Source: Chlamydiota bacterium
GTDB taxonomy: Bacteria; Auribacterota; Tritonobacteria; UBA1439
Direction: 5' to 3'
Length of the DNA stretch: 42,376 bases
NCBI GenBank assembly: GCA_037133055.1
Contig: JBAXOY010000009.1
Location: 1-42,376, forward strand
The position numbers are program-made. This document shows, piece after piece, positions 3,001-39,000 of this stretch. The stretch's first letter is position 1; every line of letters begins with the position of its first letter.

Positions 3001-6000
3001 TGTGTTGCTGACTGAAATAATGCCGCGCCTCGTTGCTCCAGAGCACAAGATACTTGACGCCCCAGTGCTGCAACATTGCATTGACCGTCTCCGGCGAGTA
3101 TTCGGATAGAAAACGCCCTTTCCATGTGCCACAACTAATGGAATTTGACCTGAATATGCTCGGGGGAAAACCGTCTATATTGGAGGCAAATAAATCTTTC
3201 CCTGTTTCCAACGCAAAGACGCCCACGAGATGAACGTCATCGGACCACTTCTCGCTCCTTTTCCCGCTCGCGCTTTCCGTGGCATGATTCAACCCACCCG
3301 CTCCCTCAAAAAGGACCAGATTCCCGTCCATCGCGCGGATTCTATCAAGGAACGATCCATAAAGGGAGGAAAGGCTCTTGAGGCGCGGCGTGGTCCACCC
3401 GAGAAACATCGGAGATCCATAGATGAGAAGGGACGTGACGAGCACGAAAAGGAGAAAAAACCTCGTGAATCCCCCCGAGGGTCTTTTGAAATCCCCTTTT
3501 AGAGCCCCAAGTGCCGCGACGAGTACCATTGACAGCAGGGGGAGCCCTCGCAGCATCCTCGAAAAAGCCTGGTCTGTAACGCACATGCCAAGGCATATCA
3601 GAACCGTCAATACACCGCAGGCCCATGCAAGGGTGCGAAGGCCGTTCCTGTTCGAACAGAACATACTCCAGAGGATGAGCGGGAGAAACAGCATCTCCGA
3701 TAGAACATCACGCAATTGCTGGAGCGCACAGGGCACAATACACGATATAACGAGCCGCATAGGCTTCGGGGTAAAATGCTGGACATCCTCTATGAAATAT
3801 CCCCGATAATTAATAAAGGGCCAGATGTAAGGGAGCGTGCAACATACCACCACACCGCATGCGACAACCGCCCTGAGAGCATTTCTTTTCCTCTCACGGG
3901 AGAACAGAATCACGAGGACGATGGTCATCAGTGAAAGGGCAAAATAGCTCAGGTGCGCGTAACAGGCACATGAGGTCACAACCGCAAGAGAAAAGGCTGA
4001 TAGATATTTATTCTCAACGAATTTCTTCACAAATATAATGACCAGGAGATAGCAATCCAACCCCACCATGCTGTTGAATGAACAGTTGCCGAGAAAGTCC
4101 CCGAAGTAACCACGCAGTAGTATTGTGGATAGATACATACCCCACACCGCTGCGATCCTCTGCGCGGGAAACCATGCCCGGATACCGCAATACGCAAGGA
4201 TGGGGAAGATGAGGATGGAAAGAAAGACCGTGAGATTGAATCCCGCGACGTCTCCGAACAGGAACATGAAAGGCGCTGAGAAGAACGCCAGATTATACTG
4301 TGTATCGAGAAAGGCCGGATACCCCCCCAGAAGGGACGAGTTCCATCCGAAGACCCCCCCCTGGCGGAGCATCTCAACCCCCTGCATGGTGAATGAATAC
4401 AGCATGGGCGCATCGTCGTGCCATATGAACGAGTGAAGATCAGGGGTGAATCTGCTTGATAGACAGGCGAGGATGAAAGTGTCACAGATGATCAGTGCGC
4501 CAGAGGCGCTCCCCACAATCATCCGGATGCGCGGATATCCGCCCAGGAGACAGAATATTGAGGTGATACCAATGGCTCCGGCAAGGAACCGAATCCCATA
4601 GCCGGATTCCATGCCCATACTCAACATAATGAAATTGATCCCCAGCGCGAGCTCGAACCACCCGATACTCAGCCGTATCGATTTGCACAGCGGGAGGTTG
4701 AGTAGCAGTGCCATAGGGTGTTCCTCTTTGAGAACGAACCCCGCCGCTCCGCTCATCCTTCGCGGGGCACCCATCTGGAGAAAAGCTGAACGCCAGTTTG
4801 GAGTTGGCGCATAAGTTTTTTAAACGATGATATCGAGCGGAGCCTCCTCAGAAGATAGCGGGGATTGAAGTAGAAATTGAGATATGCTTTTCGTAAATAT
4901 TTTTCGATGACCTCCGCCTGAAGGCCGGCATTCGTGGAAACATGAAACGCATCGAACGTGTTCCATGTCTCCGTAATGTTGGGCTTTTGTGCCTTGTAAA
5001 GCTCCGTTCCGGGGTAAGGCGTCACAATGTTAAAAGAGGCGTAATCGGCATGTAATTCTTTTGACAATTTGATCGTCCTCTCCATTGTCTCGACCGTCTC
5101 CCCCGGGCACCCGAGCATGAAAAAGGCGGCGGTCTCGATGCCGCATCTTCTCGTCGCTGCAAAGGCCTTCTTCACCTGGTCGATGGTAATGCCCTTTTTT
5201 AAGGCATCAAGCACCCCCTGATCCCCGGATTCCACCCCATACTGGATTTGATAGCATCCCGCCTTTCGCATAAGCTGGAGAAGTTCGGCGTCGACGGTAT
5301 CCACGCGGGAAAGGCAGATCCAATTGACGCCCAATTTTTTCTCGATTATCCGGTTGCATATATCAAGGACATGCGCTCGTCCAAGCGTGAAGGTATCGTC
5401 CCAGAAACCTATATCGCGGATGCCGAACTTATGGACGATCTCCTCAAGCTCGGCGATCACGTTCGCCGCTGAGCGCACGCGGCACCGCGTGCCGTTATAG
5501 ACCTGGGTGGCGCAGAATATGCATGGGTAAGGACAGCCCCTGCTGGTGATCATAATGGTGAAATTGTCTGTCATGGCGAAGGGGATCGAGTACCTGTACC
5601 CGGCGACAAGATCCCTGGCCGGGAAGGGAAGCGCGTCAATATTTTCCGGCAAAGGGCGATCGGGATTGACCATAACGCCCCCGCCCTCTTTGTAGCTCAG
5701 CCCCTCGATCGCTCTGCACGATTCCCCGGTCGCCAGCGCGTGCGCCAACTCGGCAACCGTGAGCTCCGGCTCGCCGCGCACCACATAATCGACACACGAC
5801 TGCGTCAGGACCTCCTCGTGCTGCAAGGTCACGTGGGCCCCCACGGCGATAATACGGATGGACGGGAGCGCCGCCTTGACGTTTTCGAGGACCGTCGTGT
5901 CGTGGGCGAGGGTCGATGCGCCGGTCGCGCACACGAGGCTATCGGGCGCCTCGACGGCGAGGCGCCGGATGAATTTCTTCTCCCCCGTCCGGGACGCAGC

Positions 6001-36000: not shown

Positions 36001-39000
36001 GAAAAAGGCCACCGCGTAGGGCGCGTTGGTCGCCACCGCCCTCTTCGGACTATTGTGCGCAAGAACCCACCTGACACACTCGCTCTCCGAGCCGTAGACG
36101 CCGCTCGACAGGGTGTGGGGCAGCAGCAGATAACTCCTTGACGCTTCTCCGCCGGCGATGACCGCCAGTGAGATTGCCAGCCCGATTGCGGCGATCCTCG
36201 GCGCTCCCCTCTCGCGGACGGCGTTCCACCCTCGCGCGATGATCACCATCGCGACGATCGCAAAGAGGGGAATCAGCGGCGCCGCAAATCTCACCTCGAA
36301 CATAGGAAACTTAAAGGTAAGGGCGATGACGAGCGCCCCCAGATACCATGCGGCTGCGACGAGGGGGAGATCCAGCCCCCGTCTGACCATGCGCACCACC
36401 TCGCGCCATATGCCCGGCGAGAGCAGGAGCGCACAGGCGGGGACAGCCAGCAGGAGAAACGTCAGCGCGGCCCTCCACCCGGGCTCGTCGAAACCCGACT
36501 GCTCTACGAGCAGCGCCAGCATCCCGCGCAAAGCCTCGGTCCACCCCCGATCCGGCGTGGCCAGCGCAAAGCCGATCAGCGACGAATAGAGCCATATATT
36601 GCGCGCCATCCATACCCCGATAGCGATGACCGGGGGCAGCGCGCCGAGGCACATCAGGCGCGCGGCGGGACGCGCCCCCTTCCGGTACCAGACGATGCAC
36701 GCCTCGTAGAGGAAGAGAGGAATAAGCGCCAACCCCGAGTTTCTCGTCTCGCACGCCGCGCCCGCTGCGAGGCCGCCCGACGCGAAGTACCGCCATTGCG
36801 GCCGCGCAAAGCGCGAGGCCTGGAGCATACAGACGGTCATCATTAAAAAGGCGATGAACAGCGGTTCGGTCCACGCCTGGCCGACAAGGGCGAGCAGCGG
36901 GTATGAAATCGCGACCAGTGCCCCGGCGCCCATGCCGGCGACATTTCCCGCGCAGCGGCGGGCAACGCGAAAAGCGCACAGCGACGCAACCAGGTGCGCA
37001 AGAATATTCACCGCCTGGGCGGGCCAGACCCGCCCGGGCCGCACCCCCCCGAGGAGCGCATACGACACCGGCAGGAGGGGCATCTGCCAGATGTCCGGCC
37101 AGAGGCCGGAGGAGTCGGGGGGAGGACCCATGCCGAGGGGGACGACGCCATATGCGATGAGCTTTAATCCGTTCCCCTTCAAGATCTGGTCGGCGACCAG
37201 GGCATAGCGCATCCCGTCGTTGTCGATACGGATATAGTATGCCGATCGCAGTCCTGCGGCGAGGGCGAGGACGGCGACCAGCCACGCGGCGCCATATATC
37301 CTGATCGATTTCATAGGCTCCCGACGAGCTGTATTTCATCCCGGGCGAATCAGACCAAACTCGCCGCGATCCTGAGGTACCGCCAGAACTGCGCGGGGCT
37401 CTTCAGGGTGCGCAGCGCGGTGAGGATATAGCGGGGGCGGAAGTAAAATCGCCGATTCGCCAGGTCCAGGTATTCCTCCACGACCTTCGCCGGGAGCTGC
37501 CGCTGGTCCGTCGCGGGATGGGAGTCAAGATCGCGCCCGGCGAGGAGATCGAGCCAGTAGTTCGAGGAGATGTATCCTCGGGCGACCGCCCAGTCGAATG
37601 CCTCGGTGCAGGGGTACGGGACAAACTTGCTGAAGAGGGCGAAGCGGGGTTCCAGATCGATCGCGAGGGCAATGGTCTTCTTCATGGTCTCTTCCGTTTC
37701 GCCGGGGGCCCCGAGGATGAAATACCCGAACATCTCGAGCCCGACCTTGTGACAGAGGCGGGCGCTCTCCCGCGACTGCGCCGTCGTGATCCCCTTCTTC
37801 AGGTTTTTCAGGGTCGCGTCGTCGCCCGACTCGAATCCGAACCGTATCCGGTAGCACCCCGCGCCCCTGATCGCCCGGAGGACCCCCTCGTCCACCGTGT
37901 CCACCCGCGTGCGTATCTCCCAGAGAAACTTCAGGCCCGACCGCGTGATTTCCCGGCAGAGTTCATGCGCCCACGCCTTGTCGAGGATGAAGTTGTCGTC
38001 GAAGAACATGACCTCCCGGACGCCGTACTCGCCCTGGAGCATCCTTATCTCCTCGACGATGTTTTTCGGCGAACGCGCGCGCAGGATCTTGCCCATCTTG
38101 GCGATCTTGTTGCAGAAGGTGCAGCTGAAGGGACACCCCCGCGTGGCGATCATCGTGGTGAATTTTCTCTCGCGCGCGAAGATGTCGGAATAGCGGTCCA
38201 TCCGCACGAGATGCCGCGCGGGGAACGGCACGGTGTCGAGGTCTTTGATGTAGTCTCGGTTCTTCGTCTCCCGGACTGCGCCGCCCTCCTTCCACGAGAT
38301 CCCTTCGACGCCCCCGAGGGGCCTCCCCTCCGCGAGGGCAGCGAGCAGTTCCCGCGCGATGATCTCCCCCTCGCCCTTCACCGCCACGTCGAAGTCCCCG
38401 AGTTCGAGCGAGGCGGAGGGAAACGAGGTCGCATTCGGTCCCCCGATCACGGTGGTGATCCCCGGGACCATCCGCTTCACCATCGTCGCGATGGCCGCCG
38501 CGTTGCGATAGTTCCACGTGAACGCGTAGAAGCCGGCCACGACGGGCCTGAACCCGGCGCAGGCTTTTTCGAGCGCCTGTTTCCAGTCATCCTCGGCATC
38601 ACAGTCGACAACCCGCACGGCGTGCCCCGCCTCGATGAGCGACGCGGCGATGTAGAGGATGCCGAGCGGCGGATAGAGGCCGCGCATCCGCTCGAACTTC
38701 TTGAAATCCTTCATCACCTCGTCGATGAGGATGGGGGGGTGTATCAAAAGCACGTTCATCGGTTTCTCCCAGGCATATCGCCGGAGCCCGACCCGGGCTT
38801 TCGGGCTTCGTAGAGTTGGCGAAGCCCGCACTCCCTTATCGGGAACCATTGCAGTGACTTTTCACAGATCCCGTCGATCGCCCCAGCCCAGGAATGCACG
38901 CCCGCAGGCACGAAAAGGGTGGCGCGGTGATAGTCGAGAATGAATCCCGCCTCGCGCAGCATGCGCTTCACCCGGCGGACAGAATGGAATCGGTGCGGCC

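Follow-up and report, generated by a model that had tools for sequence, protein, structure and literature searches.

B12-domain radical SAM enzymes recurrently paired with glycosyltransferases point to an unstudied way of tailoring cell-surface sugars

GtrABC and ArnCDT are further members of the polyprenyl-phosphate/GT-C glycosylation systems, which transfer ordinary sugars, are not known to involve a radical step and number one or a few in each genome; MoeK5, for its part, acts on a sugar of a lipid-linked glycan. Systems of the GacI-GacJ and PpgS-Rv3632 type associate a GT2 synthase with a DUF2304 activator (passages of 10.1101/180810). Sugar tailoring by the radical SAM class with a B12-binding domain is already known (GenD1, HpnJ, AprD4): HpnI, HpnK and HpnJ, i.e. 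a GT2, a deacetylase and a B12-domain radical SAM enzyme, operate on a lipid-linked amino sugar (passages of PMC13459092 and PMC9204698), GenD1 and GenK C-methylate aminoglycosides (passages of PMC13707489), and AprD4 is described as acting on an amino sugar and not binding cobalamin (passages of PMC12931638), its cluster motif being CX3CX3C (PMC13707489). The survey's finding that surface-glycan tailoring had yet to be described for such enzymes was too strong for sugars generally (GenD1, GenK, MoeK5, HpnJ; passages of PMC9204698 and PMC13707489) and stood for surface glycans in the literature searches made, which found no paper on their tailoring by this enzyme class.

The window, i.e. the whole stretch of 42,376 nucleotides that was analysed, comes from an Auribacterota genome (G000, 92% complete) and holds seven of its 28 B12-domain radical SAM genes; these seven each have a Radical_SAM match and an N-terminal B12-binding match. 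Some paralogs overlap or nearly abut their neighbours, and GT-C transferases are recognised among the latter by PMT_2, YfhO and GT87 matches:

2..2569, minus strand: GT87-type GT-C (Pfam PF09594), running past the contig end
2588..4756, minus: candidate YfhO/AftD-like membrane GT-C, without Pfam match (ESM Atlas features and structure), 42% identical to 6463-8610
4753..6186, minus: paralog 1, B12-domain radical SAM (Pfam), sharing its last 4 nt with the start of the GT-C-like gene; the G051 ortholog (64%) adjoins the ortholog of 2588-4756
6463..8610, minus: candidate YfhO/AftD-like membrane GT-C, without Pfam match (likeness to 2588-4756)
8743..10140, minus: paralog 2, AprD4-like, without GG and GE (alignment), 17 nt from GT9, a pairing retained in G051
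10158..11372, minus: GT9 (heptosyltransferase-like) glycosyltransferase (Pfam)
11394..12899, minus: PMT_2 GT-C (Pfam and own profile)
13166..14644, minus: paralog 3, the most HpnJ-like (397 of 577.6 bits, NCBIfam), with orthologs adjoining GT2 genes in four of four relatives examined
15068..16822, plus: carbamoyltransferase, NodU/CmcH type (Pfam)
16819..17631, plus: polysaccharide deacetylase (Pfam)
17684..19921, minus: GT-C-like membrane protein ending in an F5/8 type C domain (Pfam and own profile)
20227..21126, plus: FkbM methyltransferase (family match), with 44% GC vs. about 63% in its surroundings
21138..21920, plus: class I SAM methyltransferase (Pfam)
21902..23320, plus: paralog 4 (Pfam), overlapping the class I methyltransferase upstream
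23310..23669, minus: DUF2304, GacJ/Rv3632-type activator of polyprenyl-P-sugar synthase (Pfam; role from passages of 10.1101/180810)
23666..24358, minus: short GT2, best match PpgS polyprenyl-P-GalNAc synthase, below cut-off (family match)
24367..25383, minus: radical SAM enzyme of the SPASM-twitch rather than the B12 type (Pfam)
25377..26378, minus: GT2, MftF-like (Pfam and family match)
26555..27970, plus: paralog 5 (Pfam), divergent from the GT2, a polysaccharide deacetylase coming next; orthologs at 60-61% in G052 and G053
28040..28873, plus: polysaccharide deacetylase (Pfam)
28953..31325, minus: YfhO-type GT-C (Pfam and own profile)
31660..32571, minus: class I methyltransferase (Pfam)
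32573..33541, minus: GT2, PgfS/ArnC-like polyprenyl-P-sugar synthase (223 of 500 bits, family match)
33822..35459, minus: paralog 6, a divergent branch (Pfam and tree), flanked by a PMT_2 GT-C and a PgfS/GtrB-like GT2
35614..37314, minus: PMT_2 GT-C (Pfam)
37350..38759, minus: paralog 7, sole carrier of the TokK-type Trp, coupled to a methyltransferase and a PMT_2 GT-C, the latter pairing being retained in G050 and G051
38756..39628, minus: class I methyltransferase, 4 nt of it shared with paralog 7 (Pfam and spacing)
39618..40298, minus: nitroreductase-family flavoprotein (Pfam), a possible electron donor
40298..42376, minus: WbuX-like N-acetyl-sugar amidotransferase (NCBIfam), running past the contig end

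With a profile built from the seven window ORFs, 29 ORFs scored above 110 bits, namely 28 with CX3CX2C and one contig-end fragment, which recovers the survey's counts (28 members, seven on the contig, all with CxxxCxxC). The radical SAM core carries this motif and passes the PF04055 cut-off in 28/28, and the N-terminal B12-binding Rossmann domain (PF02310) exceeds the Pfam cut-off in most, i.e. 25 instead of the 23 first reported; the two paralog models (pLDDT 93-95) align full length with members of the class. Speaking of one family is loose, given a best within-genome match of 26-41%, a pairwise identity never above 41% and a star-like tree; the 28 paralogs are not one recent expansion. As none of them reaches the cut-off of any named family, the reaction cannot be assigned in this way. 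The GT2 fusion reported on contig C34 is real and conserved, being a single 758-aa ORF with B12, rSAM and GT2 domains and nine full-length fused homologs (60-86% identical); rSAM-GT2 fusions occur in three arrangements.

Regarding genomic context, 17 of the 28 paralogs have a glycosyltransferase (GT2, GT4, PMT_2, GT9 or YfhO) within three genes vs. 454 of 2719 genes (16.7%, own gene calls), the same fraction as noted before against a background then put at 19%. Since both neighbours of 4753-6186 look GT-C/YfhO-like, the linked paralogs rise to 18, and the one on C170 joins them by synteny (about 19 in all); some do lie outside glycan loci, in other contexts, and they number about nine rather than 11, two of them adjoining ketoacyl synthases. 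Mobile-element genes are found near some paralogs, and one paralog adjoins a Wzm/Wzt exporter. The 61 GT-C-type genes counted earlier correspond to 61 PMT_2-like genes with our own profiles, plus nine YfhO-like ones, while the best matches of 9 of 16 nearby GT2s are polyprenyl-P-sugar synthase families, all below cut-off, and those of the remaining seven, the fused one included, are the MftF, EpsD or PgaC families.

In relatives, many family members are located in one large island, whose core varies inside a single genus, yet specific enzyme-transferase pairs persist. Six contigs of G000 are probably pieces of one such island, so that the 17 linked paralogs are not independent cases; they reduce to about four independent places. 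Read by eye, orthologs of at least 49% identity exist for 13 of the 28 among the island regions retrieved from relatives, and 12 of these 13 retain an orthologous neighbour; in G051, the HpnJ-like ortholog sits between a PpgS-like GT2 and DUF2304, followed by a GT-C.

Across the phylum, 9 to at least 20 matches occur in 24 genomes of seven families, chosen after the counts were seen, and 0-14 in the other 55; the contrast drawn by the survey (7 to at least 21 copies in 22 of 23 clade genomes, 0-8 in the other 56) is a gradient rather than a split. In 20 outside bacterial and archaeal genomes, a transferase lies near 15 of 20 family loci vs. 0 of 20 controls (Fisher p 8e-7), the latter being B12-domain central-metabolism genes of the same genomes and not random genes. 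A glycosyltransferase is nearby in 48 of 77 outside loci and a transferase in 46 of 80 viral loci, and the family reaches into DPANN and CPR genomes of just 0.8-1.1 Mb as well as viral contigs. The linkage to glycan loci is stronger across taxa than inside this genome. The enzyme-transferase pairing is not lineage-specific: many uncultured bacteria and archaea have it, and so do viruses. This settles the earlier caveat that other phyla might be alike: similar clusters are common there.

This pairing points to an unstudied way of chemically reshaping cell-surface sugars. From the gene content, motifs, linkage and variability observed, we infer substrates, reactions and acceptors, and favour, with moderate confidence, radical tailoring of nucleotide- or polyprenyl-phosphate-linked sugars, with mixed chemistry, before GT-C transfer to envelope glycoconjugates, the latter being favoured by the polyprenyl-P-sugar synthase-like GT2s, the DUF2304 activator and the GT-Cs. 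About 19 of the 28 enzymes would be tailoring steps of modular envelope-glycosylation cassettes. A GT2, in some cases with a DUF2304 activator, would put a nucleotide sugar onto polyprenyl phosphate at the cytoplasmic face, or else lengthen a glycan that is lipid-linked or ABC-exported. From the sugar, nucleotide- or lipid-linked at this stage, a dedicated radical SAM enzyme would abstract a hydrogen atom, with deacetylases and methyl-, carbamoyl- and amidotransferases acting as well; the altered sugar would then be flipped, and the partner GT-C would pass it on, be it to surface proteins, to LPS or to some other polymer of the envelope. Reactions would differ between paralogs: some may perform cobalamin-dependent C-methylation, the 13166-14644 type may rearrange a deacetylated amino sugar in the manner of HpnJ, and the 8743-10140 type would probably carry out an AprD4-like dehydration independent of cobalamin. 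Cassettes would be gained, lost and swapped between genera, like surface-polysaccharide loci, and the other nine or so paralogs would serve in unrelated contexts.

While the glycan-locus link put forward by the survey holds, also across taxa, its wide C-methylation is unsupported as a general chemistry, and it is unlikely that nearly all glycan-linked paralogs are cobalamin-dependent C-methylases making methyl-branched sugars and differing in position or sugar. The cobalamin-tail motifs GG and GE (section 5 of PMC9204698) are indeed present in 21/28 and 20/28 paralogs, most annotated class members appear to be methylases, Fom3 and MoeK5 clustering with HpnJ (passages of PMC9204698), and the aminoglycoside C-methylation by GenD1 and GenK is a precedent (PMC13707489). 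However, the TokK-type Trp that closes the downstream cobalamin motif occurs in 1/28 and the Trp two residues past the Cys loop in 2/28; no paralog carries both, i.e. the TokK/ThnK/CysS-type radical methylase signature. TokK does not require the Trp for activity (section 5 of PMC9204698), and paralogs lacking it may still methylate. Besides, both GG and GE are missing in two paralogs (8743-10140 and C86:5345-6751), almost every paralog has its own lower-axial motif, the non-methylase HpnJ is the top NCBIfam match for 19/28, and the nearest solved structure is the sugar dehydratase AprD4; C-methylation is just one option among chemistries.

Judging from their sequences, the two paralogs lacking both motifs belong to a widespread AprD4-like subfamily without cobalamin motifs, often paired with GT9: other residues stand in for GG and GE in almost all 117 sequences, the cluster motif is CX3CX2C in 117/117 and CX3CX3C in 0/117, and a glycosyltransferase is nearby in 25 of 28 metagenome loci (GT9 in 11). 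In these 28 short loci (67 of 80 picked neighbours scanned), NAD-dependent epimerase/dehydratase neighbours were seen at one, and an AprD3-type reductase was not found as a regular neighbour. The 8743-10140 model has the three-domain fold of AprD4, with a Rossmann-like domain devoid of cobalamin motifs (Z 35.9, rmsd 3.0, 421 aligned; next fold Z 28.4), and AprD4 is the only near full-length PDB sequence match. Scores for the AprD4 family model (NF033070, cut-off 500) stay below the cut-off, at 117 bits for 8743-10140 and 166 for the highest seen. AprD4 is also the top fold for a canonical paralog (Z 34.4, rmsd 3.1, 414 aligned), just 2.4 Z above the methylase MgmA, so that fold tells little about reaction. 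The organism itself uses cobalamin (MetH, methylmalonyl-CoA mutase with MeaB, two riboswitches); neither CobS nor a BtuF-type binding protein was found in 9/9 class genomes, and no BtuF-type protein was found in five small DPANN/CPR carriers. Given carriers in which neither a B12 synthase nor an importer is recognised, one may ask how many members of the family make use of cobalamin at all.

Also improbable is a role in membrane lipid remodelling, in which the enzymes would act on glycolipid head groups or on lipid chains, as HpnJ, calditol synthase or Gmm do, and their products would remain membrane lipids instead of serving as GT-C donors. HpnJ similarity reaches 397 bits, GT2, deacetylase and rSAM together mirror HpnI/K/J (passages of PMC13459092), ring contraction would presumably destroy the anomeric centre needed by a GT-C donor, and both the seven MftF-, EpsD- or PgaC-like GT2s and the ketoacyl synthases mentioned above would fit. 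Scores stay below the HpnJ cut-off (TIGR03471, 577.6), the best paralog reaching 397.3 and the next 318.2; GT2 and Polysacc_deac_1 genes lie nearby, the only HpnI match among those listed having 42.5 of 310 bits. Against the lipid explanation, no squalene-hopene cyclase (PF13243) was found in G000, 3/9 class genomes giving weak partial matches (25-33 bits), conserved partners are often GT-Cs and polyprenyl-P-sugar synthases, and some twenty variable lipid modifiers swapped between genera would suit surface antigens better. Islands making secreted glycosylated small molecules, moenomycin- or aminoglycoside-like, are very doubtful: the characterised sugar-acting relatives (MoeK5, GenD1, GenK, AprD4) stem from antibiotic pathways and the window holds carbamoyl- and amidotransferases, but dozens of GT-C transferases, the Wzm/Wzt exporter and DUF2304 indicate the envelope, and the family extends to DPANN/CPR genomes of 0.8-1.1 Mb and viral contigs. 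Mere co-residence in a hypervariable island, suggested by the many linked paralogs in one island and by nearby mobile-element genes, hardly accounts for GT2 fusions, overlapping genes, partners retained through rearrangement and a linkage spanning domains and viruses.

Beyond the envelope tailoring favoured here, it is tentatively proposed, at somewhat less than even chances, that a large, unstudied radical toolkit is common to uncultured bacteria and archaea and to their viruses. It would rebuild the skeletons of sugars carried on lipids or nucleotides, giving methyl branches, ring-contracted cyclitols and deoxy or keto sugars, and GT-Cs would display what it makes as a surface code whose elements can be swapped. 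Much of the B12-domain radical SAM sequence space that is still unassigned would thereby gain a function, and so would the cobalamin-free AprD4-like subfamily within it, with its heptosyltransferase-like GT9 partners. Substrates are known for few B12-domain radical SAM enzymes and the missing substrate is the block to their study; the cassettes name the likely substrate maker of each enzyme, i.e. the partner GT2, and the natural rSAM-GT2 fusion offers a one-gene system for testing. Many uncultured microbes would then bear surface sugars with altered carbon skeletons, missed by standard glycan analysis, with relevance to phage-host recognition and new catalysts for sugar C-H functionalisation.

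Compared with the bacteriohopanetetrol cyclitol ether pathway, the cassettes likewise combine a GT2, a deacetylase and a B12-domain radical SAM enzyme, with HpnJ as the top NCBIfam match of 19/28, but fall short of the HpnJ cut-off, come without a hopene cyclase found, and combine many paralogs rather than one with polyprenyl-P-sugar synthase-like GT2s and GT-Cs. AprD4, the apramycin radical SAM 1,2-diol dehydratase (PDB 6FD2), is nearest in solved sequence and fold, and the 8743-10140 subfamily has likewise lost GG and GE in the alignment, whereas it differs by its low score, its CX3CX2C motif and neighbours that are GT9, GT2 and GT-C instead of a regular AprD3-type partner. GenD1, GenK and MoeK5, cobalamin-dependent C-methylases of the gentamicin and moenomycin pathways, have the same architecture and perform radical methylation in glycoside pathways, but in actinomycete antibiotic pathways with one or two such enzymes; for the paralogs here methyl transfer is a possibility. 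Finally, as in the polyprenyl-phosphate/GT-C systems (GacI-GacJ, PpgS-Rv3632, PgfS-PgfM), a synthase-like GT2, DUF2304, a deacetylase and a GT-C meet in one cassette; what sets this genome apart is its at least 61 GT-C genes and the radical SAM enzymes inside the cassettes.

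Seven ORFs of the window have a B12-binding match ahead of a Radical_SAM domain, and a profile built from them retrieved 29 ORFs above 110 bits in the genome under study (2.99 Mb, 92% complete, 191 contigs, 2719 genes by our own gene calling). As the survey's finding had counted, 28 of these carry CX3CX2C, and the Pfam B12-binding cut-off is passed by 25 of them instead of 23. A transferase (any GT2, GT4, GT9 or GT-C glycosyltransferase) lies within three genes of 17 of the 28 paralogs, as previously reported, against 454 of the 2719 genes (Pfam glycosyltransferase positions on our own gene calls; the background was first put at 19%). 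The 61 GT-C-type transferases of the survey were recounted with our own profiles as 61 PMT_2-like genes, plus 9 YfhO-like ones. Several paralogs share an overlap with their partner genes or lie almost directly against them. Radical SAM/SPASM-type genes are likewise enriched in glycan loci, a transferase lying within three genes for 15 of 43 other CxxxCxxC proteins, with sites at 24367-25383 in the window and on contigs C17, C86, C12, C11, C58, C120 and C162. Four window paralogs recur below:

4753-6186, the sole window paralog scored negative for a nearby transferase, with two related YfhO/AftD GT-C-like membrane proteins on either side
8743-10140, a member of an AprD4-like subfamily, beside a GT9
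13166-14644, the most HpnJ-like paralog
37350-38759, a paralog coupled to a PMT_2 GT-C

In the reading that we consider rather probable, and of which we infer every catalytic step, dedicated cytoplasmic radical enzymes would modify nucleotide- or polyprenyl-linked sugars, which would then reach envelope glycoconjugates through GT-C transfer or ABC export. The chemistry would be mixed, comprising methylation, HpnJ-like rearrangement and AprD4-like dehydration, and the cassettes would be swapped in the manner of surface-antigen loci. Uniform C-methylation by all members, close to what the survey had proposed, appears unlikely. Regarding the GG, GE and lower-axial motifs of the cobalamin-binding class, as named in a review (PMC9204698), GE is intact in 20 and GG in 21 of the 28 paralogs, the lower-axial motif is divergent almost throughout, and the TokK-type Trp occurs in one paralog, 37350-38759. 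Both GG and GE are absent from 8743-10140 and from C86:5345. The AprD4-like subfamily to which these two belong has the motifs substituted in nearly all of 117 sequences, and among its listed homologs, at 40-67% identity, are records from Nitrospirota, Elusimicrobiota and Planctomycetota.

The paralogs are deeply divergent. The best within-genome identity of each is 26-41%, and a quick tree shows a star-like topology whose terminal branches are long, which led us to reject recent tandem duplication as their origin. Glycan-linked and other members are not separated on this tree (7 changes of state vs. 8.4 in shuffles), and none of the 28 reaches any NCBIfam equivalog cut-off. About nine paralogs stand in other settings, with ketoacyl synthases, ABC and Mla transporters, kinases or malonate decarboxylase genes. 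For one of them, C37:11723-13186 (locus L004), six relatives from more than one family carry orthologs at 69-86%, with no adjoining glycan cluster and, in one relative, a lone GT2 about 5 kb away; a housekeeping role is likely. Within its own family, a PAS histidine kinase adjoins it. Ketoacyl synthases adjoin two non-glycan paralogs, at C18:24357-31123 (L019), also with a GH3-family ligase and a methyltransferase, and at C13:19009-21922 (L015); for both, lipid or polyketide tailoring is possible.

As the role of the family at large, tailoring of glycolipids or lipids is doubtful. Among the 16 nearby GT2s, 9 find their best match, always below cut-off, in polyprenyl-phosphate-sugar synthase families (PpgS, PgfS, ArnC, AglJ), of which AglJ acts with a lipid carrier, and the remaining 7, fused domain included, match MftF, EpsD or PgaC best. 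Synthases of the former kind are activated by DUF2304 proteins, according to a preprint (10.1101/180810), and in the relative G051 the ortholog of the HpnJ-like paralog lies between a PpgS-like GT2 and a DUF2304 gene, followed by a GT-C and with a deacetylase upstream. The reported rSAM-GT2 fusion on C34 is genuine: a single 758-aa ORF in the order B12-rSAM-GT2, with 9 full-length fused homologs at 60-86% identity, on which grounds a frameshift artefact is rejected; two rSAM-GT2 fusions that are arranged otherwise were also found. Further fusions in Omnitrophota records (P0013, P0028) join rSAM to a methyltransferase-like region or form a tandem double B12-rSAM. The window further encodes a SPASM enzyme along with methyl-, carbamoyl- and amidotransferases. 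A Wzm/Wzt exporter adjoins the paralog at C12:18366; secreted glycosides as products seem very improbable. Besides, an FrhB-like iron-sulfur oxidoreductase-methyltransferase fusion (C12:5378-7366, L001), possibly an electron donor, overlaps the paralog at C12:7363, and the two are kept together in the relatives G050 and G051.

Orthologs of genes on the window contig (C9) and on C12, C86, C122, C107 and C111 are contiguous in G050 (C118) and G051 (C4/C44), so that these contigs probably form one island; the orthologous order in G053, of the same genus, joins C170 with C67 and C12. This merging leaves about four independent glycan-linked places in the genome, and the within-genome ratio alone therefore proves little. 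In comparisons with G050-G053, confined to fetched regions and with ortholog and neighbour tallies read by eye, the island flanks in G053 are orthologous at ~65-83%, 7 of the 12 full-length paralogs of its fetched region match G052, of another genus, at 63-84%, and nine paralogs of the genome under study match G050/G051 at 49-69%. The island core is variable. Whole-genome checks agree with this: against the two same-genus genomes, window positions 1-20000 gave a long alignment only for the 13166-14644 gene, and 8743-10140 had no match at E 1e-60. Co-location alone is a most improbable explanation, since it would have to account for neighbours kept across relatives. Orthologs at 49% or more were found in the fetched island regions for 13 of the 28 paralogs, and 12 of these keep an orthologous neighbour (4753-6186 a GT-C, 8743-10140 its GT9, 37350-38759 its PMT_2, and the C12, C86 and C122 paralogs their own GT2s or methyltransferases); the C17 and C45 paralogs retain GT4/GT2 operons. 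A 77% identical DNA copy (window 13-1174 and C111:6543-7704, over a GT87 and neighbouring GT-C sequence) is a sign of cassette duplication within the island, and the GC content of an FkbM methyltransferase gene at 20227-21126 (44% vs. ~63% around it) suggests a recent acquisition.

The nine class genomes hold 9-29 family members each (full counts). Within the phylum, the survey's split turns out to be a gradient, with 9 to at least 20 matches in 24 genomes of seven families chosen post hoc, after the counts were seen; the other 55 reach 0-14, above the 0-8 first given. A lineage-specific trait is rejected, as transferase-linked loci occur in other bacterial and archaeal genomes and in viral contigs. 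Species genomes were scanned with a 6-sequence alignment, a 15-sequence one being too diverse; the best 77 loci among the matches listed fall in Omnitrophota, Elusimicrobiota, Chloroflexota, Desulfobacterota, CPR, DPANN, Bathyarchaeia and others; at 48 of them a transferase lies no more than 6 kb away, and 28 include at least two family members. Carriers also include anammox records. The survey's own caveat, that similar clusters might exist in other uncultured phyla, thus proved well placed: in 20 shared genomes, a transferase was nearby at 15 of 20 family loci vs. 0 of 20 control loci, the controls being metabolic non-rSAM B12-domain genes and not a random-gene sample. At least 20 PF02310 matches, a count that takes in other B12 proteins, occur in 8 of 40 such genomes. 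On viral contigs (L249-L328), GT2, GT4 or GT9 lies within 5 kb of 46 of 80 family loci, with tailoring of virion, DNA or host-surface glycans possible; PMC9723712 reports 15 radical SAM genes in one huge virus.

Searches bearing on the supply of cobalamin detected neither CobS nor BtuF-type proteins in any of the nine class genomes and no BtuF-type protein in five small DPANN/CPR carriers, and a TonB receptor had no match in the genome under study; the BtuM-type search (PF20221) matched no control and is uninformative. MetH, methylmalonyl-CoA mutase with MeaB and two cobalamin riboswitches in this genome weaken the notion that no cobalamin is available. One riboswitch precedes an Ig-repeat secreted protein together with a gene whose match to DUF4430 is borderline (C129:3257-6327, L137); PMC4350170 places this domain at transcobalamin C-termini. 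The other precedes a secreted protein whose propeller-type match is weak (C42:18874-20492, L138). Such riboswitches occur in 8 of the 9 class genomes, all without detected BtuF-type protein or CobS. The riboswitch-linked proteins are candidates for a non-canonical uptake system, and B12 scavenging by such a route is likely. Six DPANN/CPR genomes of 0.8-1.1 Mb (G079, G086, G087, G093, G105, G116) hold 5-13 PF02310 matches, the cobalamin motifs being mostly intact at the loci seen.

The survey had called this use undescribed. Radical sugar tailoring by this architecture is in fact known in antibiotics and hopanoids, and it is the surface-glycan setting that full-text searches found in no paper (subscription papers and supplements lying outside the search), nor was a tie between these enzymes and glycan tailoring present in the examined passages of PMC9723712 and of an Omnitrophota preprint. 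Putative surface-glycan cassettes with B12-domain rSAM enzymes are widespread and uncharacterised. HpnJ ranks first among NCBIfam models for 19 of the 28 paralogs, but the best score (13166-14644) is 397 against a cut-off of 577.6 bits, and no hopene cyclase was found in this genome, the nine class genomes giving weak partial matches in 3, so a hopanoid HpnJ identity is rejected; the G051 cassette of GT2, deacetylase and HpnJ-like rSAM nevertheless resembles HpnI/HpnK/HpnJ as presented in PMC13459092. AprD4 is the only near full-length PDB match of the 8743-10140 subfamily, and the model of this protein superposes on it with Z 35.9 (rmsd 3.0 over 421 residues; runner-up 28.4). In metagenomes, a transferase is nearby at 25 of the 28 closest subfamily loci (of 80, very short loci excluded), a GT9 at 11, and an AprD3-type reductase is no regular neighbour there. 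AprD4 is described as dehydrating paromamine, with a CX3CX3C motif (PMC13707489), and as not binding cobalamin (PMC12931638), whereas CX3CX3C occurs in 0 of the 117 subfamily sequences. For 8743-10140, too, bound cobalamin is predicted to be absent. The model of a canonical paralog also places AprD4 first, only narrowly ahead of MgmA (Z 34.4 vs. 32.0), and the fold therefore does not fix the reaction. The paralogs may act like HpnJ, GenD1/MoeK5 or AprD4, yet they fall outside HpnJ and AprD4 proper.
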